From: an uncultured Gemmataceae bacterium
GTDB lineage: Bacteria > Planctomycetota > Planctomycetia > Gemmatales > Gemmataceae
DNA length: 64,000 nt
Reading direction: 5' to 3'
Assembly (NCBI GenBank): GCA_963750165.1
Contig: CAVVPN010000012.1
Location: 736,001-800,000, forward strand
In this document: positions 10,072 to 26,679 of the stretch, piece by piece
Numbering within the stretch: the stretch's first letter is position 1
Layout: each line of letters opens with the position of its first letter
The notes under the pieces: model-generated
What the model was told of the DNA's origin: nothing
Seen by the model: only the letters and a program-made list of their open reading frames with translations
Database searches by the model: none
Program-made: the position numbers and the translations under genes

Positions 10072-11115
10072 ATGACACCGCGACCGCAGGCCCGGCCCCG
10101 CTGGGCGTTCACGCTGATCGAACTGCTCGTCGTGATCGCCATCATCGGCATTCTGATCGGTCTGCTGCTGCCCGCGGTGCAGAAGGTCCGTGCGGCGGCC
10201 GCCGTCTCCCAGTGCCAGAACAATCTCAAACAGATCGGCGTGGCCCTGCACAACTACTACAGTTCCTACAAGTATTTTCCGCCCGGCTACGTCGATGGCA
10301 ACACGGATCCCAACAGCACTCCCGACAATGACGTGGGGCCGGGCTGGGGCTGGGCGGCCTACCTGCTGCCCTACCTCGAACAGAACAACGTGTACAACCA
10401 GATCAATTTCCAGCAGACGGTGGGGACCGGCGTCAACGCTCAGGTTTCCCTGACTGCGCTGCCGGTTTTTCAGTGTCCCTCGGATCCGTACCAGGATGCT
10501 GTCCCCATCTACGACAGTAATTTCACCAATCCGATTGCCGTGGTAGCGCACGGCAACTATGTCGGCTGCAACGGCTGGGAGGAATGCTTTAACGGTGCTG
10601 GCGGCAACCCACAACCCGGGGGCGGGGCCGACGGCCTGACCGGCCAGTACGGCATCGCCGGACGTGGGGTGTTTTATCGTAACAGCCGCACGATTGTCGT
10701 CGCCGTCCGTGACGGCCTGAGCAACACCATTTTCGTGGGCGAGCGCTCCGCCAACCACTCCCCCAGCACCTGGACCGGTGCCGTGCCCGGCGGACGCTGT
10801 CCCGCCTGGATGGCAACGCCAGCCTTCACCGCTCCCAACACGCCGCCGGGCCAGGCACCCACGGGGCCCAACGGGTCGGCCTACGACAATGCGGATTTCG
10901 GCGAGGCACTCGTGTTCGCCCACGCCAACGCCACGCACCTGCCCAACGCCGACCAGCCGTTCTACGACCCCGATACGTTCTACAGCATGCACTCGGGCGG
11001 CGCGAACTTCCTGCTCGGCGACGGCTCGGTGCGGTTCATCAGCAGCGGCGTCAACCCGACCACCTATCAAGCCCTGGGCACCATTGCCGGCGGCGAGGTG
11101 CTCGGCGATTTCTGA
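10072..11115 (+). CDS. DUF1559 prepilin-type N-terminal cleavage/methylation protein with H-X9-DG motif
   Basis: AFTLIELLVVIAII..LLPAVQKVR..CQNNLKQIG.ALHNY; DGLSNT; HSGGANFLLGDGSV. Confidence 0.95.
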   Translation: MTPRPQARPRWAFTLIELLVVIAIIGILIGLLLPAVQKVRAAAAVSQCQNNLKQIGVALHNYYSSYKYFPPGYVDGNTDPNSTPDNDVGPGWGWAAYLLPYLEQNNVYNQINFQQTVGTGVNAQVSLTALPVFQCPSDPYQDAVPIYDSNFTNPIAVVAHGNYVGCNGWEECFNGAGGNPQPGGGADGLTGQYGIAGRGVFYRNSRTIVVAVRDGLSNTIFVGERSANHSPSTWTGAVPGGRCPAWMATPAFTAPNTPPGQAPTGPNGSAYDNADFGEALVFAHANATHLPNADQPFYDPDTFYSMHSGGANFLLGDGSVRFISSGVNPTTYQALGTIAGGEVLGDF

Positions 11116-11145
11116 CCGCCCGCTTCCGAACGGAGGACATGAGCC

Positions 11146-11541
11146 ATGCGTCATCCAGCACGCTTCGTGGTGTTGCTGTGCTTGCTCGCGGCCGGCTGTG
11201 GCCGGGAGAAAACGACCGAGGAGTTGATCGCGGACCTGAAGTCGCCCGAGGAGAAGGATCGTGTCATCGCGGTTCGTACCCTGGCGCGGCGCCAGGCGGA
11301 CACGGCCCAGACCGTGCCAGCGCTGATCGGTGCCCTCAAGGACACGGAGAGCGACATCCGCTGGAGCGCCGCCATCGGGCTCGGCAGCCTGGGTGAAAGT
11401 GCGCAGGAAGCCATCCCCGCGCTCCAGGCCGCGCAGAGCGACCGTGATGCGCGGGTGCGCGAGGCGGCCGGCGTCGCCCTGTCGCGCATCGATCCGACCC
11501 GCTTCACCGCCCCGTCCAGGAAGCCACGCAAGGGGAAGTGA
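11146..11541 (+). CDS. HEAT-repeat lipoprotein
   Basis: Lipobox LAAGC; VPALIGALKD..IRWSAAIGLG and VREAAGVAL repeats. Confidence 0.85.
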   Translation: MRHPARFVVLLCLLAAGCGREKTTEELIADLKSPEEKDRVIAVRTLARRQADTAQTVPALIGALKDTESDIRWSAAIGLGSLGESAQEAIPALQAAQSDRDARVREAAGVALSRIDPTRFTAPSRKPRKGK

Positions 11542-11703: not shown

Positions 11704-12150
11704 CTACGAGCCAGCGACCAACTTCATAATGGCGTTAAGCAAATACTCTGGCACCGCCCTGCTGTTCACCCGCGACAACTCACGTACAAGATCCGCCGCC
11801 AGGGGTTCCTGTCTCTTCTGGTACAGATTCATAAACAGCGCGCACTTCTCCGATCGGACCCCATCTGCAACCGCGAAAAACCCTTTGCTTCCGGAAAACA
11901 CCCAATCGTGCGCACGATCCTGCCCCACAATACTCTGCAACCATCTGGACACATCATTCTCTTCGAGGCGTTGATGGAGGTGAAAACCAAACGCTTGATA
12001 CACCATCTTTTTCTTGCAGGTATTCGCGCACTCATACTCCAACCTGCGCATGGCGAAACAAAACACGAGCAGCGCCGCCAGAGCGACAGGAACGAGTAGC
12101 CACCAGGGACTCAAGGTGATCCTTTCCTTATCGCTACGGTGCGCAATCAC
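11704..12150 (-). CDS. Putative immunity protein for the RHS toxin (N-terminal TM)
   Basis: Small ORF directly downstream of the RHS stop, visibly lower GC, hydrophobic WWLLVPVALAALLVFCF; start uncertain. Confidence 0.55.
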   Translation of the reverse strand: MIAHRSDKERITLSPWWLLVPVALAALLVFCFAMRRLEYECANTCKKKMVYQAFGFHLHQRLEENDVSRWLQSIVGQDRAHDWVFSGSKGFFAVADGVRSEKCALFMNLYQKRQEPLAADLVRELSRVNSRAVPEYLLNAIMKLVAGS

Positions 12151-12235
12151 GAATTGACTTGAGCCCGAGGCGCCAGTGCGGGGGCCCGCGCTGCGCACTC
12201 GGGCTCAAACAAGAACCGCCCACCAGGGCCAGGAG

Positions 12236-15200
12236 CTACCAGGCTTCGTCTCCCGTGGAGTCGGCGGGGTGCAAAACGGTCTGCTGGCCGTTCGGCGCAA
12301 CGTCAACAACGGCGCCGTAGGCCTTCCAGAGATCCCGGATTCCGAAGAAGGTGATGTTCCTTCGTTCAAAGTTGCCGTTCTGGACGCCGCGGACATTGCA
12401 CCCCGTCGCGGCCGCGATGGTGGCGAGCGTCTGGCCATCGGCACTGCCGCAGGCCATGACGTTGATCACGCACGGCCGGCACATGATGCCGGCGAGAATG
12501 GTCCCGAACCGCTGGGCATTGGCCTGGGAGATCGTCTCCTGTCCCGCCTGCGGCGTGCCGTCGTATCGGCTGAAGCGGAAACCACCCTGACCCGCAAAGC
12601 CACCGTGGGCACTGATCGTCAGCTTGTTCACACACTGGCACTGCCCGACATTGGCGCGCAGCGTGTTAATCATGTGCTCCACATTCCGGACCCCGAACAC
12701 GTCTCCCGCGTTCTTCAAGGCATGGGCAAAGCTTTTTCGGCTGGATTCCAGATCGGCGTACATCATGAAATCCTTTTGCTGGCAGGAGCAGCAACAGTTG
12801 AGCGTCGCATGCATCCGGGCCGCACCGAAGGTGCCCTCATTGCCCTGGCACCAGTTGCAGGTCCGCGGCAGCGGTTGGATGGCGGCCAACCCGCCGGGCT
12901 GCGGGGGAGGAAGCTTGGTGCGAGTTTCGCCAAGCGGATCGACATAGAACGTCGGTTGCCCCTCCTCGAACCGATACAGGTTGTCGTCGCCCGCCGAGAA
13001 GCCGGCCGGATCCTGCTGCAGAAAGCGCCCCAGCGTCGGCGAGTAATCGCGGTTGCGCGAGTAATAGAGTTCGCTGGTCGTGTCATACCGCAATCCCTGG
13101 AACAAATAATTCCACGAGTAGGTATCGCTGCCCGCGCCCCAGCTGGCAGTCAGGACCGTGACACTGCCATAGGGATCGTAGACGAAGCGCTCGACCACGG
13201 TGCCCGAAGTGTCTACCAGGGCCGTGACGTTGCCGTTGGCATCCTGCTGGGCGTATAGCCGCAACGTGAGAACGCCGCTGCCGTTGGGGTTGCTGTCGCG
13301 CTCCACCAGCGTGTCACTGCTCAGCGGGGACCACACGTATTGCGTGCTGGCAGTGCTGCTGCCCGCGGTGCGCTCTTCGATCACCTGCCAATCGCTGTTG
13401 TAGAACAGGTCCACCGTCGTGCCGGTGGTTTGGGTGACCCGACGGTTGATGGCGTCGTAACTGTAGGATTCCAGCGTGGTGCTGCCATTCTTGACGGCCA
13501 CCAGCCGGTCCCAGGCGTCGTAAACGTAGGTGTTGCCGTTGGGATCGGCGGTCAGGTTGCCGTTGTTGTCGTAGGCCGGTGGCGTCTGCCCCGCGACCGA
13601 CTGATATTCGTTCTGCGCGTTGGTGGTGCGCGCCTGCGGCACGCCATTCACGGTCACGCTGGTCCAGTTGCCCAGGGCGTCATAAGTCCAGGTCTCCGTC
13701 TCGCTGCCCCGCGTGAAGGCCGTGAGCTGGTTGCGGTCGTCGTAGGTGTATTGCTCATTGAGGGCGGAGTTCAGCACGTTGTTCTTGCTGAGGATGTTGC
13801 CGTCCTGGTCTTCGACATACAGAAAGTCATCCGTGGCGCTACTGGTGCTTGTGTCGTACCAGAGTGCTTCGACAACCCGGCCGAAGCGATCCAGTCCGGT
13901 GTACTGGTCGCCGGCGTCTCCCGTTGCCCCCGTGGGACTGATATAGGTCAGATTGACGTTGGTTTGCGGGTGGGCGCGCTCGACCACGGTATCGAGGCCC
14001 AGATACGTGTAGGCTTCCAGCACGCCCGTGTTGTCGGAGATCGAACTGAGCCGGCTAATGTCGTTGTCGAGGCCGGCGTCGTAGTTGTAAGTGACCACGC
14101 GGCCGTTGGGGTAAGTCATGCTCGTCAAGCGGCTGTTGTTTTGCCCGCCGGCCAAATCAGTGTAGGTGTACTGCACCACCGGCGTCGTGCCGACGACCAC
14201 GGGGCCGGACGGAGACTGATACTCACTGGTGAGTTGGCTCAGGCCGTTGTAGACGTCCTCCACCTGGTTGACGATCGTGGTGCCGGCCGGGTCGGCGTAG
14301 CTGGTGTAGAGGTATGGATTGCCCTGGCTATCGTAGGCCGTGTCGATGCGGCGGATCGAACCATCCACATTGCTGCCCAGCGTGGTCACGGCGTCCGAGG
14401 TCTGCCGACCGAGCACGTCATAGGTGAACTGGTGCGTCGTGCCGTTGCGGTCGGTCAGACCGGTCATCTGGCCGATGGCGTTATACGTGTAGGTGGTCTG
14501 CTGACTCGGACTGCTGCTGGGCAGGCCGGTCGTGGGGTCGGGGTATTCCGTGGTGGCCAGCAGGTCGTTGGAGTTGATGGCACTGCCGCCGGTCGTGGTC
14601 ACGCCGTAGACGTACTGGGTCGTCTGCGACGGCGTGCCGGCCGGCTGCACGGCCGTCACGGTCAGCCTGTGGTTGTCGCCGTCGTAGGTGTAGGCCGTCG
14701 TGTAGTTGCTCGAAGTGGTCGGCACGCCGTTGGTGTAGTCATCGATGGATTCGACGATGCGGCCCATCCCGTCGTAGAGTGTCCGGTAGTCGATGCCGCG
14801 CGGATCGATCACATCCTGGAGCCAACCGGCGGCGTCGTAGAAATCCTGGGTCTCCAGCACGATGTTGGAAGGGGTGGGCGGTGTGCTGGGCCGGGTATAG
14901 GCAGTACCGCCGTTGGTACCAACATCGGCGGAAGCAATCGCGCGGTCGGCGGCGTCGTAATAGAACACCGAGTAGTAGTCCCGCGCCTGGGCGCGGTGGT
15001 GCTGGTGGGATCACCCAGCGCCCCGGTCCCGGTGGCATTGTTGAAGCGCTGCCGATCAATGGTCTCGATCACGTTGTTGTCGGCATCGTAAATCGTCTGC
15101 GTCTGCTCCAGCACCACGTCGTTGGCCACGCTTGACGCGCCAGCGTAGGTGGTGCCGCTGCCGCCGTCGGTGGTGTACTCCGTCACCTGCCGCCCGGCCC

Positions 15201-18200
15201 CGTCGTAGGCGTCCTTGGACCAGAGACCACCCGGATCGCTCTCGGCGATCTGGTCGCCGCGGTGGTCGTAGTAGAAGTTGGTTGTCAGTCCCGTGCTCGA
15301 CACGGTCCCCGTCATCGGGTTCACGTCGTAGGTGTCCGTTTGATAGACGCGGCCCTGGTCGTCGTACCCGGTGGTATTGTAAACCCGCAGCAGGTCGGCG
15401 GCGGGCGGCTGCGGCACACCGTCGGTCGTCTGGATGGTCACGCCGTCGCCGTCGTACTGGCTATAGGTGGTCACTTCGCCGAGGTTGTCGTAGGTGGAGT
15501 AGTAAATCGGCCGGTTGGTCCCGTCGTATTCATTGGCGGGGTTACTGAGCACACCGTCCTTCTCGGCCACCTGGCGATCGCGCCAGTCGAAGTAATACTG
15601 CGTGACGCGCGGGGCGGCCCCGCCGCCGGGATAGTCGGTTTCCTGGGTGAGGTTGCTGTCCCCGACCCCGCCGCCGTCGTAGACGTAAGCGCTGATTTCG
15701 ACCATGTTGGATGGACTGGTGTTGTTGGTCGGCGACCAGAAGCCGCTGCCCGGCGTGTCGTCGGTGCCCTCCCAGGTGCTCACCAACCGACCCAGGCCGT
15801 CGTAGACATCGCGCGTGATGGTGCCGTTCGGGTCCTCCGTCCGCTCCAGACGGCCGCGGTGGTCGTAGCTGTACTGCGTCGTGTAGTAGTTCGTGTTCTG
15901 CGCGCCGAGGTAGGGAGTCGTTGAGTACGTCAGGCCGCTCAGGTTGAAGTAGGAGTCTTCTCGCACGTCCTGGCCGGCCGCGTTGGTGTAGTTGCGCTCC
16001 AGGGTTTGCACGTCGGTGATTGGCTCGGTGCCATCCGGCACACCGCCCGTCAGGTGGGGCGCCGCCGACATCGTCAGCATCTCGGTGTAGCTGTTCGCCA
16101 GGTCCACGCGGTAGACCTGAGTCGGTCCGGTGGGCATGCCGGTGGCGGCGTTCCAGCCGGGATAAATCCGGGACTCGTGGTCGGGATCGTCATAGACCGT
16201 GTAGGTGACGTTGCCGTTGGGCGTGGTTTGCTCGATGACCCGGCCCAGACTGTCCACCTGATAGGTCGTGACCAGGTTCAGGCCGCCGCCTGGCGGTGTG
16301 CTCCAGCCAGCGGGAAGGTTGCTGAAGTCACTGGGGTTGGCGGTGTTCACGTCGGCGATGGTCTCGATCACGGCGCCGGTGCCGGTGTCGTAGGCCGCGT
16401 AGCTGAGGTAGCCATCGCCATCCCGGTTCCAGATGGCCCGGCCCTCGGCGTCGTACACGGTCGTGCTCACGTCCGCGGCGCCTGGGCCGTTCTGCGCCGC
16501 CGAAATGGTCGGCAGCGACGTGGTCATCGACTGCACCTGGGTGGTGCCGGGGTAATAGGTGTAAATGTAGGTGGTGGTTTCGGCGCCGGTGCCGTTGTCA
16601 TAGCGGTAGCCGGTGCTGGTCGCCTCGGGGTGGACGGTGCTGCCGTTGGCCGTGTGCGTGTAATATTGATACGTCGTCTGCGGGATCAGCGTGCCCTGCT
16701 GCCCCTGCTGCAACTGGGAATCGAACTGATAGCCGGTGACGCCGCCCGGGTCCGTCTCGGTGGCAGTGTTGCCGGTGTAGTAGTCGTAGCGCGTGATCAG
16801 ACCGCTGTCGTTGCTCAGGTACTGGTAGTTACCGCCCTGGTTGTTCAGCAGGTCGGGGTAGCTGTCATCGTAGCCGGTCACCGCCGAGGGGTTGGCCATC
16901 TCCGTGACCCGGCCCTGGCCGTCGTACTGGTAGAACGTTGGCCAGGACTGGTTGGTGGTGGTGTCGTGGTAGACGCTGAGCATCACCTCGCCGTAGGCGT
17001 TGGTGTAGACGTAATTCTGGTTGCCATCGGGCAGCGTCTCGGTTGTCTCCGTGTTCCAGCTGTTGAAGCCGGCCGGGTTGCCGCTCGCCGTGTAGGTGTA
17101 GGTGTACGTGCCCAGGCCGCCGCTGCACGACGAACAGCCATCCCCCTGGATCACCGCCTCGGTGACGCGCTGCTGGCTGTCGTACTGGAAGTACGTCGAG
17201 GCGTAGGGCGCCACCTGAGCATCGGTGGCCGTGAAGGGATCGCCAACCGCGGTCTCCAGGCGGGCGAACGATTCCGTGTCGTAGGAGTATTTGAGACCGT
17301 GGACGTAGCCGATGCTGCCGGCGTCGGCGGCGGTGTAGTAGCGGTAGTAGGAGGTGTCGATGGGGTTGCCGCTGGCGTCCTCGGTGACGGCGGTCATCAG
17401 GTCGCCGGCGTTGCCGTAGGGCTGGCTGCCGTCGTAGTAGGTGTAGACCACCTGGCGCACCACCGTCTCCGGCCCGTTGTTGATCTGCCGTTCCAGGGTG
17501 ACGTCCTGCAGCAGCCCGGCGTTGACGCCGCTGGACACGTAGTCGTAGACGTACGACTCAGTAACGGTGTTGCCGCCGGACATGGCGCTGCGCTGCACGC
17601 GCGTGGTCTGGCCGTCGGCGTTGCGGCCGGTGACCGAAGTCACATCGCCGCCCGGGTCGGTGTAACTGCTCAGTTGCCCCTGCTGTCCCGACGCCACGCC
17701 GACGAAGCCAGAGAAGACCAGCACGTCGCCGAGTTCGTCGGTCAGATCGTACTGGTTGGTGGTGGGGTCGAAGGTAAGGGTGGACTCGTCGAAGTAGCGC
17801 GGCTGGTAGGCGCCGCCGACGAGGTCGTAGTAATAGGCGGTGGTGCCGTTGCTGACCTCGGCGAGGGTGGTGGGGCTGACCTGAATGAGGGAGGGCAGCT
17901 GGGTGTCCACGACGCCGTTGCCGTTACTGCTCTGGGAGGCGTAGCCGGGGCCGTTGGTCCAGGAGCGCGTCTGGCCCCAGGGCACGCCGTAGCCGGCGGA
18001 GGACAGGTCGGCGGTGGCCACCTGCACGACGCCATCGCCGTAGCGGACGCCGCTCGGCGACTGCTCCGAGGGCAGGTTGCCGCTGTTGCCGGCGGCGGCT
18101 TGCACGAGGGTGCCCGGCGCGTTGGTGCTGCCGCAGTTGCACCCGGGCCGGGGCTGGGGCACCACGGGGGGCGGGACCTGCTGGTTCATCTGCTGCATCG

Positions 18201-18839
18201 GGATGTTGACGGCATCGGAGATGCCGTCGAAGAGGCCGAGGTTCATCGACGAGAAGCTGAAAGTGCTGGGGAAGGTGGTGATGGTCAGGTCCGGCTGGTG
18301 GATGAGCAGACCGAGGGTGTTGCCGATGGTGTACGGGTTGTTGGGCCCGGCCGTCAGCTGGCCGCCGGTGATGGTCAGCTGAACCTCGAACTCGCCGGAC
18401 TGCGGCGAGAAGGCGTTGGCGAAGCCGAAGGCGGTCGGCTGGGCCGTCAGCAGGGTGCCGTCGTAATTCTGGGCGCCGAGGGCGACACTGCCGGTGACGC
18501 TGAAGCTGCCGCCGCTGCCGGTGTAGGTGCCAGCGTTGGTCAGGTTGAGGTCGAGGTTGGTGGTGGCGGAACTGCCGTCGGAGGGGTCATTGATGTAATT
18601 GACGGAGGTGTCGGGCATGGTGATCCACAACGGGATCGAGTCGTAGTGGAAGGGGTTGGCGTTGTTGTTCAGTTGTGTGTAGGACAGGTTGTTGACGATG
18701 CCGGAGGTGAGGTCCGGCGGCGTCCCCTGTTGTGCCAGCCCGAGCAGGGCGGGGACCGTGCGGTCCTCCAGCGCCTCGACCATCGGGACGAATCTCCGTG
18801 CCCACTTTTGGGCGCACGACGAGCGCGAGCGGTAACCAT
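12236..18839 (-). CDS. RHS/YD-repeat polymorphic toxin, ~2,200 aa (frameshifts near 14989 and probably 18808)
   Basis: ORFs 14809..19017 and 12236..14968 join at TAP/ARDYYSVFYYDAADR; many YD repeats; RHS core YYSRNRDYSPTLGRFLQQDP..G..NLYRF....P..YVDPLG; N-terminal RRFVPMVEALEDRTVP planctomycete motif. Confidence 0.9.
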
Positions 18840-18934
18840 GACCGTTCCCCCCACCGATGAAGGACTGCCAAGTGATCGACGCCAGCTCTTTCCGTCCGGT
18901 TGTTTTGACGGGGCGGCCCCATGCGGGCCCACTG

Positions 18935-19702
18935 CTAGACCGACTGCGCGAACCGGCGCCAGGGCAGCAATCGCCGCCAGAGCTGCGGCCGGCGCCAGCT
19001 GAGCAGCCCCAGACCACCAGTCAGCCACAGCGCCAGCGTGCCCGGCTCCGGCGTCAGCATGCCGAGCGTGGGCTTGACGCTGCTGGAGGAGAAGCTGCTA
19101 GTGAAATCGCCCAGGGTACCGCTGGTGACGTTCTCGGCGACGAGTTGGAAGCCGCCGAGTTGTCCCACGGAAAAACCCCCAAAGACGGAGTTGCCCTTCG
19201 AGTCGGTCATCGTCTGGGTCAGCGCTCCACCCGTGACGCTGAAGTAGCCGTCGAAGCTGAGCGAGGGCGGCCCGGCCATCTGCGCCCCGAAGTTGGTGAC
19301 GGTGCCGGTCAGCAGCGTGCCGCTGAAAGTGACTGGGGTCGCCCCGTCCTGGAGTTTACTCAGGGTGAGGGTGCCAGTGAGGCTGACCCCGGTGCCGTTG
19401 GCGACGAAATTCCCGTTGTGATCGACCGTCAGGTCGATGCTCAGGACGCCGGTAAACGTTGCGAAAAACGGGGCTTTGAGGATGAGCGGCGCGGTGTACT
19501 GGAGGCTGGCAGCCGACAGCGCGACTTTAAAGTCGCCGGTGGAGGCGGTATACGCGATACTGCCGTTGCTGCCTCCGACTTGCGGGCTGTTGGGGATGTA
19601 GTTGATCGGCAGCAGGCCGGCGCGGGCGGTCGCGGGGGACCAGAGCAGGACGCCGAGGACCAGGGCCAGGGCCCCGAGGCATCGGAAAGTACACACAGTC
19701 AC
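18935..19702 (-). CDS. PEP-CTERM sorting domain protein
   Basis: AGGAG RBS before GTG 19702; signal peptide ending ARA; C-terminal TPEPGTLALWLTGGLGLLSWRR. Confidence 0.85.
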   Translation of the reverse strand: MTVCTFRCLGALALVLGVLLWSPATARAGLLPINYIPNSPQVGGSNGSIAYTASTGDFKVALSAASLQYTAPLILKAPFFATFTGVLSIDLTVDHNGNFVANGTGVSLTGTLTLSKLQDGATPVTFSGTLLTGTVTNFGAQMAGPPSLSFDGYFSVTGGALTQTMTDSKGNSVFGGFSVGQLGGFQLVAENVTSGTLGDFTSSFSSSSVKPTLGMLTPEPGTLALWLTGGLGLLSWRRPQLWRRLLPWRRFAQSV

Positions 19703-20388
19703 AGGTGTTCTCCTAAAGAAACCCCACTCGGTGGCTGAACCATCCAGGCGGCGGTGGACGCACACCTTCCCCGAGTCCGGGCGGCCCGACGGGCGCGCAC
19801 AGCGGACGGGGAAGAGGGAACGTCAACGGGTTCGATTCAGTGGGACACCGCGGCTCAACAAAGGACCATGAGGGGCTGTTTCATAACGAAGGGGCAAGTG
19901 CCGAACCGACTGTGCGCAGCGGTTCCGGCGTCTGCGTTTTGCAACACACACTCAGGATCGATCCAAAGATCCCTTACCCTCAGGAAGGTTAATACTGGGG
20001 CACCGCGATTTCTTGGCATGATTCGGACAGGATGATAGGGCGCGTTCGTTGCACGATTGACACAGCACCCACTTGAGGTTGGCTGCTGTTTGGGTCAAGG
20101 TTCAACGACGCTCGTCAAGAATCGGCCATGCGGTCGCGGCACTGAGGCCGTGGCTGACATGACTGTTTCAAATTAGTTAGTTATCACAGGCATCGCCCGA
20201 TTACAAGAAGAAAAAACGAATTTTGCCATGTGGGTGCGGACTCGAACTCTGGTGCGGCCCGGGCGTAATGGACAAGGTGCCACGACCGCGCCGAGTCCGC
20301 GCGGCGTTTGCAAATCGCGGCGAATCGGGTACCGTAGACCGGGGTGAATGTCGATGTCCGCCGCAATCCAGTTCAACGGAGGTCGCTC

Positions 20389-23129
20389 ATGGCGATCCGG
20401 CTTCTGCTCGTCTGCTCTGTGTTTGTGGTACCAACGGTCCTCACGTCGCGCAGTCTGGCCCAGGCGCCCGACAGGCCCGCCACGCCGCGGCTCGACGCCG
20501 ACGGTCAACCGCTGCCGCCCGGTGCCCTGGTCCGCATCGGCTCGACGCGCTTCCGCCACAAGCAGCCGGTGTCGTACCTCGGCTTCGCCGGCGACCGGTA
20601 CAAACTCCTGGCCCTCTCCGGCGGGGAGATACGGCTCTGGAACCTGGACACGGGCAAGGCCCTCTGGCGGAAGCTGACGCCAGCCGTCGGCGACGCGCGG
20701 TTTGAACGCCGTTACTTCGGCCGAACCGCGGAGCTGGTGCTGTCCCAGGATGGCAGGACGGTCGCCTGGTGGGTCGGCGACCAGCTGAAATTCCACGACG
20801 CGACCACCGGCAAGGAAATCGCCAGCGTGGCCCAGAAAAAGCTGGCCGAGGATCTGAAGGCTGACGCAAGCGAACTGCGGGACGCGGAGTTTCAACTCTC
20901 CGCCGACGGTCAGTTCGTGGTCGTGTCCGACAGCGCCGAATTATTCCGCAAAGGCCGCGGTCAGGGCCGCAAGGTCGGTGTCTGGCGGGCCGACACTGGC
21001 GCCCTCGTGCGCGTGATCGACATGGGCGAGAAGAAGTCCCTGGTAGCGCTGGCCCTGGCCGGCGACGGCCAGAGCCTGGCGACGGTGGAAGAAAGTGCGG
21101 GCAAGGACGAGAAGGAGAGCCGGCAGACGGTGCGCCTGTGGAACCTGGCCACGGGCAAGGAGGTGAAGTCGTTTTCCTCGCCCGTGGAGCGGCCGAGCCA
21201 CCTCCGCTTCCTGCCGGGCGGCAAGGCGCTGGTGGCGCTGGATCGCGGCGGTGAGTCGGTCCATCTGGTGGACACGGCCACCGGCAAGGAGCAGCGGCGC
21301 TTCCTGTCCCGCGGCGAACTGCAGCGTGTGCTGATGTCGGCGGACGGCAAGCGCCTGGCGGCGGTGACTCATGACAGCGTCTGGGTCTGGGAGACCGCCG
21401 CGGGCAAGGAACTGCTGCGCGTGCCGGCCGTCACCGTGGACCGCGGCGAACTGGCGGCGGCACTGTCCGCGGACGGCAAGCGGCTGGCGGTCGCAGTCGG
21501 CGTCAGTTTTCGGCTGTGGGACGTGGACACAGGCAAGGCCGTGCGCATGGACGAGGGCCACGTGGACGGGGTGGCGTCCCTGGCCTTCGCGCCGCGGGGC
21601 GGCCAGTTGTTGACGGCGGCGCCGCACGGGGCGCTGCTGCTGTGGGAGGCGAAGTCGGGCCGGCTGGTGCGGAGTTTCGCGTTCGCGCCGGCCGGGGTGC
21701 CCGAGGGAGGCGCTGCGCAACTTCACCAATGTACCGTGGAAGACGAACACCATTCAGGCGGCGTTCACGCCGGACGGCAAGACGGTCCTGGGCCTGGAAC
21801 TGGGCGGGGCGCTGCAGCGCTGGGACGCGGCCACGAGCAAGGCGCTGCCGTGGGCGGTGGCGTCGCGGAAGTACCTGACCTCCTTCGCCATCGCGCCGGA
21901 CGGCAAGCATGTCGCCGTGGCCGGCCTCGGCGGAATGCAGCTGCTGCAGGCGGCGACCGGCAAGGAGACGCGGCAGTTCCTCGCGGGCACCGTGCCGGAG
22001 AAGGACGGGCCGGGGCCAGGCGACTTCCAGTTCATCACCACGGCGTTCTCACCGGACGGCAGGCTGCTGTTCGCCACCCAGCTGAGCGTGGAACAGGGCA
22101 GGCGGGGGCCGGACGCGGGCATGGCCTCGACGTATCACGGTTTCGAGGTGTTCACCGGCCAGCGGCGCCTCCGCGCTGAGACGAAGATCAACCTGGAGGC
22201 CCTCATGGGAGGGGGTGGCGAACAGATGCTTGAGATGATGTCGGCGGTGTACGACATGATGGTGGTTGGCGTGGCGATGGCGCCGGATGGCCGGCACCTG
22301 GCGACCGCGGGTCTGACGAGCGTCAAGGTCTGGGACGTGGTCCGGGGTCGGGAGCTGCGCGTCCTGGCCGGCCGTGGCGTGGTGCCGATGACGGTGACGT
22401 TCTCGCCGGACGGCAAGCTGCTGCTGGTGGGCCGGCTGGACGGCAGCATCCGGCTGTGGGATGTGGCGACGGCGACGGTGCTGGGCGACCTGCCGCTGCA
22501 CGGCTCGACGGTGACGGCGCTGGCGTTTTCGCCCGACGGCAAGACGCTGGCATCGGGCTCCGCGGACACGACCGTGCTGCTGTGGGACTGGGCGGCCCTG
22601 CGGCAGCGGCTGACGGCAGTGTCGGCCGCCGCGGCGCCGGAAGCGCTGTGGCAGGCGCTGGCGGATGAGGAGGGGGAAAAGGTGCGTGACGCCCTGGCGA
22701 CGCTGGTGGCGGCGCCGGGGCCGGCGGTGGACTTGCTGCGCGCGCGGATGAAGCCGGTGCCGCCGGTGGACCCGGCGCGCGTGGCAAAATTGCTGGCGGA
22801 CCTGGACAGCAAGCAGTTCGCGGTGCGCCAGGCGGCGACGAAGGAACTGGAAAAGCTCGGCGACCTGGCCGGGCCGGCGATCCACCAGCAGCTGGCGGGC
22901 AAACCGTCGCCGGAGGCCCGGCAGCGGTTGGAGACGCTGCGCGACCGGCTCGACGGCACGGCGCCGACAGCGCAACTGCGGCGCGAGGTGCGGGGGGTGG
23001 AGGCACTGGAGCGGATCGGCACGCCGGAGGCGCGGGAGCTGCTGGAGGCACTGGCGCGGGGCGGCGGGGCACCGGCTGACGGCGGAGGCGGCGGAGGCGG
23101 TGCGGCGGCTGAAGAAGGGGACGCCGTGA
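20389..23129 (+). CDS. Secreted WD40 beta-propeller protein with C-terminal HEAT-like helical domain (frameshifts near 21705 and 23063)
   Basis: DADGQPLPPGALVRIGSTRFRH start typical of planctomycete WD40s; VTALAFSPDGKTLASGSADTTVLLWD; VEALERIGTPEARELLEALA. Confidence 0.85.
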
Positions 23130-23257
23130 CCGGATCCGGTTTTTTCGGATTCGTTTCCGGATTCCTTTTCGTGCCCTGAAAATGCCGAGAAGTACTCCTC
23201 GGTGCCAGGAACCGATTTTCAGTCAACGGTTGCGCGAAGGGGCAGAAGAAGGCTCGC

Positions 23258-25123: not shown

Positions 25124-26156
25124 TCACACCGGGAGCGGATTCCGCTCCGCGAAGCCGCGCTGGTGCCAGTACGGATAGGCGGGCGTCGTGGCGCTGGCGG
25201 CGTCGAGGCGGGCCACCTGCTCGGGCGTCAGGTTCCAGCCGACGGCGCCGAGGTTCTGCCGCAACTGCTCCTCGTTGCGGGCGCCGATGATGACGGTGGC
25301 CACGGTCGGCCGCTGCAGCAGCCAGTTCAGCGCCACCTGCGGCACCGTCTTGCCTGACTCCTGCGCAACCGCTTCGAGAGCGTCCACCACGCGGTACAGA
25401 TACTCGTCATGCACCTGCGGCCCGATGTCCACCACCTTCTGGCTTTGCAGCCGGCTGGTCGCAGGCAACGGCTGGCCGCGGCGGATCTTGCCCGTCAGCC
25501 GGCCCCAGCCAAGCGGGCTCCAGACCACCGCGCTCACCTGCTGGTCCAGGCCCAGTGGCATCAGTTCCCACTCGTAGTCGCGGCCGATCAGGGAGTAGTA
25601 CGCCTGGTGGGCGACATACCGCGCCAGGCCGTAGCGCTCGGAGACCGCCAGCGACTTCATCAGGTGCCAGCCCGAGAAGTTCGAGCAGCCGATGTACAGA
25701 ATCTTGCCGTGCGCGCACCAGGTCGTCGAGCGTGTGCAGCACCTCCGGGATGGGTGTGCGGGCATCGAAACCGTGCAGCTGGTACAGGTCGATGTGGTCG
25801 GTGCCGAGCCGGCGCAGGCTGCCCTCGACGGCACGAGTGAGGTGGTAGCGCGATGAACCGACATCGTTGGGGCCGGGGCCGGTGCGGAAGGTGCCTTTGG
25901 TGGAAATGAGCACGCGGTCGCGGCGGCTCTTGAGCGCCTGCCCCAGAATATCCTCGGCCAGGCCACCAGAGTAAATGTCGGCGGAATCGAAGAGCGTCAG
26001 GCCGGCGTCGAGGCAGATGTCCACGAGGCGCGTCGCCCCGGCCACATCGGTGGCGCCCCACGCCTTGAAGAACTCGTTGCCGCCGCCGAAGGTGCCGGTG
26101 CCCAGGCTCAGCACCGGCACCACGAACCCTGAGCCGCCCAGTTGCCGGTATTCCAC
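25124..26156 (-). CDS. Aldo/keto reductase (frameshift near 25712)
   Basis: EYRQLGGSG..LSLGT, FDSADIYS, SLRRLGTDHIDLYQLH, then GKILYIGCSNF, WSPLG.GRLTGK, QVALNWLL. Confidence 0.9.
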
Positions 26157-26679
26157 GGTCACCCCCTCTTGTGCATCGTCCAATTGGATGGGAACTGGGC
26201 CGCCGACGGCCGGCAGGACGCCGCCCCGTCGAGGCCCAGACCACAGGCTCGATTCTACCCGGGGCGGCTACCGGCAGCCAGGGTTGGGGCGTCAGGTCGA
26301 TCGTCAGCGCACGCCCGTTCTGTGGAATCGGCGGGACGCACTGCATGGTGAAAATTTGAGGAATGAGAAAATGGTAACGGCTGGGGGGCGAATGTCAATC
26401 ATAGAATGCTGGGAAAGTGCGTGATCGACGGCGGAAACCGGTGGACACTATGTTACGGTTTGTTACAATCTTCCTTGAACGAATTGCCTGCCTTGATCGT
26501 CTTGTTAGTGGTGACGCCCACACCACCCGGGGCAGGGATCCAAAAGATTCCCTGCCACACTGCCATCGAAACCCGCCAACCGCCCGTGTCGTCATCGGAA
26601 CGGAACCCACTCAATCGTCAGAACCGCTGGGCCGCGGAACGGCCCCAGCCCAGGAAGCGTTGCCTTCACAGGTGCCGTC

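Follow-up and report, generated by a model that had tools for sequence, protein, structure and literature searches.

A predicted barrel domain shared by neighbouring PEP-CTERM and RHS genes of a Gemmataceae bacterium and its conserved use as paired PEP-CTERM and cargo-borne paralogs

The locus

The window analyzed here is a stretch of 64,000 nucleotides (G000:C12:736001-800000) from the genome of an uncultured Gemmataceae bacterium (G000; 9.6 Mb in 12 contigs, 93% complete), and the subject of the analysis is a minus-strand cassette in it, in which a 255-amino-acid (aa) PEP-CTERM gene (19702-18935) is followed by a gene for an RHS protein (approximately 18839 to 12236) and then by an open reading frame (ORF) of 164 aa. 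An earlier sequence-only reading had described the first two genes as co-oriented and about 95 bp apart, and both do lie on the minus strand with a gap of 95 bp, given that the RHS gene starts at the ATG at 18839.

The PEP-CTERM protein is composed of a Sec-type signal peptide (19619-19702) with a hydrophobic core and an A-R-A end, which is common to the homologs and after which cleavage probably takes place, a domain of 188 aa (19055-19618), called A here, which profile scans and structure prediction present as an 8-stranded beta-barrel without a Pfam or NCBIfam name, and a PEP-CTERM sorting signal with TPEP, transmembrane helix, basic tail and stop (18935-19054). The RHS protein begins with a leader (18751-18839) in which a basic stretch is joined to a putative export motif of the planctomycete LExLExR type (18751-18798), as read from the sequence and from the leaders of homologs. 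Its N-terminal domain B of 185 aa (18196-18750, with its frame beginning at 18750) is an ancient paralog of A by BLASTP, Smith-Waterman, HHalign and AlphaFold2. A Pro/Cys-rich linker and the first part of the RHS/YD-repeat shell follow (14987-18195, from tblastn and profile scans) and end at a frameshift near 14987; thereafter come the second part of the shell with the RHS-associated core ending in DPLG (12929-14986; TIGR03696 58.9 bits, cut-off 32.5) and a variable C-terminal domain of 230 aa (12236-12928), a putative toxin in which HG and CGS motifs occur and for which there are weak Atlas leads. The 164-aa ORF (11704-12198, minus strand) starts 37 bp past the RHS stop, has an N-terminal hydrophobic helix and is a candidate immunity gene by its position only.

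Homology and predicted fold of the two barrels

The proposal that A and B are homologous, which had been made from motif pairs aligned by eye, is borne out by pairwise, profile and structural comparison. The quoted motif pairs are present in both translations, and the alignment places the central and C-terminal pairs in collinear order. BLASTP of A against B gives 27 identical residues in 76 (E 7e-6), and the Smith-Waterman score of 105 (z 7.8) lies above ordinary shuffles (43+/-8) and above 10-residue local shuffles (47+/-8), 0 of 5000 reaching it in either case. Since the reversed sequence scores 80, the pairwise score is inflated by beta-strand periodicity, and more weight is due to the profile test. 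In it 48 PEP-CTERM domains (A and 47 homologs) were aligned by HHalign with 15 RHS N-terminal domains (B and 14 RHS homologs), with Prob 96.6 and E 6.5e-10 over 144 columns; the reversed profile reached 3.2 and the best of 100 column shuffles 3.5. The A profile recovers 14 of the 15 B domains at E<1e-4 with the database size set to 1e6.

The AlphaFold2 models (pLDDT 92.8 for A and 82.7 for B) have identical sets of eight long strands, so the folds are predicted to be alike, and both models match the same set of small barrels (7x80, 2q03, 5k21 and 3c5o). The best structural match is 7x80 for A (Z 9.0, rmsd 3.2, 116 aligned) and 2q03 for B (Z 8.8, rmsd 3.7, 119 aligned); these Z scores, taken from predicted models, indicate a barrel arrangement and not a function. 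Foldseek of A and B against the PDB returned nothing at E<=0.001, and a PDB sequence search returned nothing credible for the barrel.

In the tree A and B fall into separate, well-supported clades, which speaks for an old paralogy rather than a local duplication, and the homologs are 41-59% (A) and 46-63% (B) identical to the window proteins. Conservation across the family falls on Gly, Pro and hydrophobic positions, Tyr23 being the sole polar one, a pattern that fits a structural role, and no conserved residues of catalytic or polar-pocket type were found across the family. An N-terminal arm of LL(G/N)V type stands before 118 of 140 first domains (background 12%); it lies 4 residues past the leader Arg in 47 of 63, is absent from three internal barrel copies and is modelled with low confidence in B.

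Conservation of the gene pair

The pairing of PEP-CTERM and RHS genes that share the domain is conserved in other genomes, as a PEP-CTERM barrel lies directly upstream in 9/9 readable RHS-barrel loci. These are the window, L001, L002, L005, L009, L010, L086, L087 and L092, of which L005, L009 and L010 were found from the PEP-CTERM side only and L086, L087 and L092 came from genome searches. Ten loci were taken from the PEP-CTERM side: all five with enough downstream DNA are followed by a gene that has an RHS-type leader and barrel B, RHS sequence following the barrel in four of them and L005 stopping inside the barrel-B gene, and in the other five the contig ends within 640 bases. Seven further A/B pairs, in which adjacency is presumed, have their two members on contigs of identical length (7 of 14 RHS matches, and 7 of 12 PEP-side contigs of at least 10 kb).

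Genome searches gave 14 cargo loci, of which 12 are testable and two (G013, G542) lie at contig ends and are not countable. A PEP-CTERM gene stands directly upstream in 11 of the 12, ten of these genes carrying clear barrels and one a weak homolog (G046; HHalign 62%), and the upstream barrels of G124, G387 and G068 were detected by a profile lacking them (E 2.6e-10, 8e-12 and 7e-8). In five genomes (G563, G541, G579, G526, G544) each cargo has its own partner in spite of a solo barrel in the same genome. Excluded from the counts is G144, where a weak barrel match (L051, G144:C164:32854-33084, E 9.7e-4) lies within an open frame of 9520 aa.

The cassette is patchy, being present in 8 of the 401 genomes of the phylum sample with the source genome included, and in 60 genomes from the family to which the window belongs profile A3 did not find the barrel. 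In the source genome the barrel occurs only in the two genes of the window, 1 of 49 PEP-CTERM-like ORFs having it. The trees of the partners mirror one another (Mantel 0.88, 0 of 5000 permutations).

The wider barrel family and its cargo

A joint profile (A4) matches 1,891 clusters at 50% identity, one family protein being labelled Poribacteria. A rule-based sort of the best 150 of these clusters gave 97 longer cargo proteins, 26 of PEP-CTERM type and 27 short or partial ones, and the barrel starts no more than 75 residues from the N-terminus in 146 of the 150. Its position is the mature N-terminus of exported proteins, which are for the most part SdrD-type adhesins and in some cases RHS proteins. 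What follows the barrel is exchangeable cargo, namely two RHS shell types and adhesin stalks of SdrD, DUF7467 and LamG type; among 52 proteins picked from the 150 and scanned, the cargo is mainly SdrD-B repeats (SdrD_B in 30), DUF7467 and DUF7507. RHS-like proteins make up 5 of the 97 cargo proteins, and a C-terminal transmembrane-like anchor is found on 1 of the 97, some of which are fragments.

P0077 has both barrel types fused directly, and in P0075, P0078, P0079 and P0080 a single frame encodes both types, separated by an internal helix and a leader. In these four the PEP-CTERM tail is continued by another signal peptide or LExLExR leader, after which a further barrel follows; as the clusters of P0075 and P0080 contain one more member each, that of P0080 being from other sources, some of the four may be genuine polyproteins that undergo processing in the membrane.

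Further observations were made on the family. In 16 of the 97 cargo proteins (P0093, P0107, P0121, P0124 and 12 others) a C-terminal motif IN..GDI or N..GCP is shared, which may be a capping or sorting domain without a name. The spacer between export motif and barrel is rich in Pro, Ser, Gly and Ala and about 270 aa long in one RHS subgroup (L001:10555-11660, L002:10887-11730 and P0067), and a spacer of L005 and L009 measures about 65 aa. The solo barrels of family f107 were read in four copies (L038:6417-7445, L039:7172-8014, L040:7007-8023, L041:403-1293), all of them PEP-CTERM proteins; the gene lies tail-to-tail with the same sigma-70 gene in 29 of the 30 best loci (L056-L085), and its product is a candidate major surface protein of f107.

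The PEP-CTERM protein, the RHS protein and their export

A Sec signal peptide was judged by inspection to be present in the window protein (P0001) and in 47 homologs. The PEP-CTERM tail scores 16.7 bits with TIGR02595 (cut-off 16) and gives no score with Pfam PF07589. The mature barrel has no name: 0 of 20 tail-less domains match a named PEP-CTERM family, Pfam or NCBIfam, and an Atlas search with A gave only leads below 0.8, to PEP-CTERM clusters. Identity with PepA (NF033554) was rejected on account of full-protein matches that are far below the cut-off and driven by the tail, and a TIGR01443 intein match of 16 residues on A, seen in 1 of 20 members, was set aside as chance. A search of the genome for exosortases, which had been suggested with the first reading, found 6 PF09721 matches over the cut-off, equal to 5 genes of which one (on contig C4) is split, none of them in the window.

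The RHS protein has the sequence characters of an RHS polymorphic toxin, i.e., YD repeats and a core ending in DPLG (PF05593, TIGR01643, TIGR03696). Twelve C-termini of the RHS homolog set were compared, P0063 having been dropped as its boundary was not found, and no pair is alike at E<1e-3; the window C-terminus is unlike the 11 others and also unlike P0063. The same barrel is followed by 12 unrelated C-termini and by two RHS shell types, and PT-HINT is found in P0052. The C-terminal domain of the window protein has no Pfam match and PF14252 gives no score; its weak Atlas leads score 0.89-0.90, with DUF4347 on 17-30% of the members of two clusters, and together with the HG and CGS motifs they suggest a putative DUF4347-like or caspase-fold peptidase. 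The 164-aa ORF has no meaningful family match in Pfam, NCBIfam or Atlas.

By eye the leader matches the planctomycete export-motif consensus LxLExLExRxxP given in section 19 of PMC8567305. PF07595 has no match at the RHS leader, and 0 of its 27 matches in the genome pass the cut-off. LExLExR-like motifs occur in 83 ORFs of the genome, and the barrel in just this one.

The claim that the toxin is delivered without a type VI secretion system (T6SS) stands for the architecture of the RHS protein, which has a putative export leader and in which, as in 12 homologs, no PAAR or VgrG domain was found, and falls for the genome, in which contig C3 bears a T6SS cluster with two TssC, Hcp, VgrG and a PAAR-like gene, PF05488 not being found in the genome. 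The part of the cluster at L043:26-15834 (G000:C3 about 950000-965800) holds a ClpB-type ATPase fragment, Hcp, VgrG, DUF6484 and the PAAR-like gene, together with SUKH immunity, DUF2169 and a VWA protein of 1708 aa, the two TssC genes being about 10 kb upstream. A second RHS-core ORF, without the barrel, is an open frame of 582 aa at G000:C3:121215-122960.

State of the assembly and neighbouring genes

The frame change of the RHS gene near 14987 is a single one, intact homologs changing frame at 14986/14989 in tblastn. The ATG at 18839, the likely start, does not share the frame of the leader motif, so a second frame slip near 18810, close to the 5' end of the gene, is probable. The frameshift is likely an assembly or sequencing error, because an aldo-keto reductase gene of the window (25124-26183, minus strand; two frames with complementary Pfam halves) and an exosortase gene are split in the same way. 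A WD40 gene (20344-23179, plus strand) is in two overlapping frames, and these splits in the aldo-keto reductase, WD40 and C4 exosortase genes suggest frequent indel errors in the assembly.

On the plus strand a DUF1559 prepilin-like gene and then a small HEAT-repeat gene (10072-11541) converge on the cassette. Upstream of the PEP-CTERM gene lies an intergenic region of about 640 bp (19703-20343) that is AT-richer in part; no sigma-70 consensus was found in it, and a promoter and terminator scan gave scores at or below shuffle level.

What the paired barrels may do

The barrel family is used as paired PEP-CTERM and cargo-borne paralogs, and this is a real, conserved and apparently undescribed module in which RHS toxins are one cargo. 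That exosortase-anchored barrels co-assemble with barrel-tagged cargo and thereby display the toxin is a reading we hold to be about as probable as its contrary. In the proposed mechanism, as known families would have it, A would be exported by Sec, processed by an exosortase and presumably anchored at the surface, and the RHS protein would be exported separately by its LExLExR leader. A would then bind B at the RHS N-terminus and keep the predicted toxin on the cell, the hetero-assembly probably being made by way of the conserved LL(G/N)V-type arm released by signal cleavage, and its form could be a small oligomer, a lattice or a fibre. Cleavage after DPxG would free the encapsulated C-terminal toxin, from which the product of the downstream gene would protect, again as in known families.

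Hetero-assembly would explain why a dedicated PEP-CTERM paralog stands upstream even beside a solo barrel, and likewise the fusions, the arm motif, the lack of catalytic-type residues and the rarity of membrane anchors on the cargo. An N-terminal dock is also natural for an RHS protein, because the C-terminus is the payload and no C-terminal anchor is possible. The anchored docking that the sequence-only reading proposed is favoured by homology, predicted fold, pairing and the presence of exosortases, and its "layer or stalk" has analogy alone behind it; the toxin display system it saw does include RHS toxins and proves to be broader, most barrel-tagged cargo being adhesin-like. We offer only tentatively, and with more doubt than trust, the stronger form in which the N-terminal arms link PEP-CTERM barrels into a polymeric fibre or lattice with barrel-tagged RHS toxins, SdrD adhesins and lectins built in.

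Several points weigh against the display reading. The cargo of G348 (genome 81% complete) has no partner upstream or elsewhere. The Mantel correlation is a sign of co-inheritance only, as expected from linkage alone, and the members of cognate A/B pairs do not resemble one another more closely than those of non-cognate pairs (0.071 vs 0.076). In the present assembly the RHS gene contains a frameshift. In f107, where 106 of 121 genomes have the barrel, mostly in single copy, the PEP-CTERM barrel occurs without cargo, which points to a role independent of cargo, and at three f107 loci two PEP-CTERM barrels are paired, so pairing is not solely about anchoring. Possible anchors of their own are carried by P0069 (GC-type dockerin), P0134 (dockerin), P0112 and P0146 (DUF4214) and P0103 (FlgD-Ig/T9SS-like tail), and such anchors, the dockerin tail of P0069 for one, fit a choice-of-anchor reading equally. 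The N-terminal place on an SdrD stalk is usually that of an adhesive tip. PMC12188702 leaves it unresolved whether exosortase substrates are anchored or released, and the comparison literature leaves PEP-CTERM anchoring and outer-membrane transit unresolved.

The main rival, which we regard as unlikely but serious, is that the barrel is a choice-of-anchor adhesin domain, occurring in short PEP-CTERM and in long stalked or RHS forms, which binds an outside ligand such as exopolysaccharide, a surface or a target cell, so that the two genes would be co-regulated paralogs without contact and B the targeting tip of the RHS protein. It agrees with the N-terminal barrel on SdrD stalks in most cargo, with the dockerin, DUF4214 and FlgD-Ig tails and with the near-core solo barrels of f107, and also with PMC9850573 and PMC12188702, in which PEP-CTERM proteins, as exosortase-processed proteins, are tied to exopolysaccharide binding, adhesion and floc formation. 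However, it leaves unexplained the dedicated and deeply diverged partner of each cargo, even beside a solo barrel, as well as the direct fusion in P0077 and an arm tied to the processed N-terminus, and conserved polar pocket residues were not found across the family.

Quite unlikely in our judgment is recognition in trans, where a released RHS protein would bind by B to PEP-CTERM barrels on neighbour cells, the surface barrel serving as kin receptor and the cassette as receptor, toxin and immunity, in the manner of contact-dependent inhibition (CDI) against close relatives. The same barrel-barrel contact would account for the pairing, the near-universal surface barrel of f107 would be a ready receptor, and the C-termini are polymorphic, but adhesin cargo and pairs of two PEP-CTERM barrels fit it more poorly. 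Kin receptors tend to vary between strains, whereas the A and B subfamilies are conserved at the identities given above and not strain-variable.

Improbable too is an export escort, in which membrane-tethered A would act as a periplasmic chaperone or co-secretion partner, bring the cargo through the outer membrane on the exosortase pathway and release it. There is a weak fold similarity to the barrels of the Slam-type substrates HpuA, HphA and LbpB, but its Z of about 5.6 is at background level; solo barrels and pairs of two PEP-CTERM barrels have no cargo to escort, and of the 83 ORFs with LExLExR-like motifs only the RHS gene has the barrel. It is very improbable that the RHS protein is an ordinary T6SS effector with the shared domain incidental to it, since in spite of the T6SS genes on C3 and of DUF6531 after the barrel in several homologs, PAAR and VgrG domains are lacking from the window protein and the 12 homologs, the protein has a putative export leader and a barrel that Sec-exported proteins share, and the cluster lies on another contig.

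Significance

The function of most PEP-CTERM proteins and the surface retention of planctomycete proteins with LExLExR leaders are open questions of the field, and planctomycete competition systems are little studied. The locus gives a concrete handle on them, as the binding of its two domains, each about 185 aa long and both members of an unnamed family with 1,891 clusters, is testable in vitro. If A and B bind, PEP-CTERM proteins would be docks for paralog-tagged cargo and RHS toxins would gain a new delivery route; if they do not, a widespread new surface domain is still defined. Barrel-barrel docking, if true, would be a mode of toxin and adhesin display that is so far undescribed. The polymer platform, if true, would be categorically new: it would make PEP-CTERM proteins the scaffold of a modular display used by Planctomycetota and by Poribacteria at the least, and would open to RHS toxins a contact-dependent route other than T6SS, CDI and Tc.

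Comparison with known systems

The comparison literature consists of 10.1101/2023.06.07.544157, PMC3482391, PMC12188702, PMC8567305 and PMC9850573. In the literature searched, which was covered by titles and the starts of abstracts and lay apart from most subscription papers and from supplementary domain-architecture tables such as those of PMC3482391, neither the domain nor the pairing was found described, nor a PEP-CTERM protein as dock for paralog-tagged cargo. With the RHS/YD polymorphic toxins of Zhang et al. 2012 (PMC3482391) the window protein shares the YD shell, the DPxG core, the variable C-terminus and the small downstream gene. In that paper interchangeable N-terminal trafficking domains set the delivery route, and a count of PEP-CTERM and exosortase mentions in it gave none; here, unlike there, the N-terminal domain is an unnamed barrel paralogous to the adjacent PEP-CTERM protein.

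The PEP-CTERM protein resembles PepA (NF033554) and the Nostoc CrtB substrates in its signal peptide, its extracytoplasmic domain of about 190 aa and its tail of PEP motif, transmembrane helix and basic end, but, unlike the named families, its tail-less barrel is without a family match (0/20). The best fold matches are allene oxide cyclase (AOC), dirigent, DUF3224 and DUF3237 barrels (Z 8.1-9.0, rmsd 3.1-4.0 A, 108-138 residues), of which several are oligomers; identity with these barrels is 3-13%, conserved catalytic residues are missing, and the Z values are barely above the level of small barrels.

Pili capped by a paralogous tip subunit are known from chaperone-usher, type V and sortase pili and from TasA/TapA. 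By analogy the logic would be alike, with a small anchored subunit, a cargo having a paralogous assembly domain and a processed N-terminal arm; the module here differs in its predicted 8-stranded barrel in place of an Ig-like or jelly-roll fold, and no usher, sortase or assembly gene was recognised beside the A/B pair. The choice-of-anchor domains of NCBIfam naming are alike in that one extracytoplasmic domain occurs with PEP-CTERM, VPLPA-CTERM, dockerin and other tails, and the present family is set apart from them by two diverged paralogs standing side by side, the second of which usually carries cargo and no membrane anchor.

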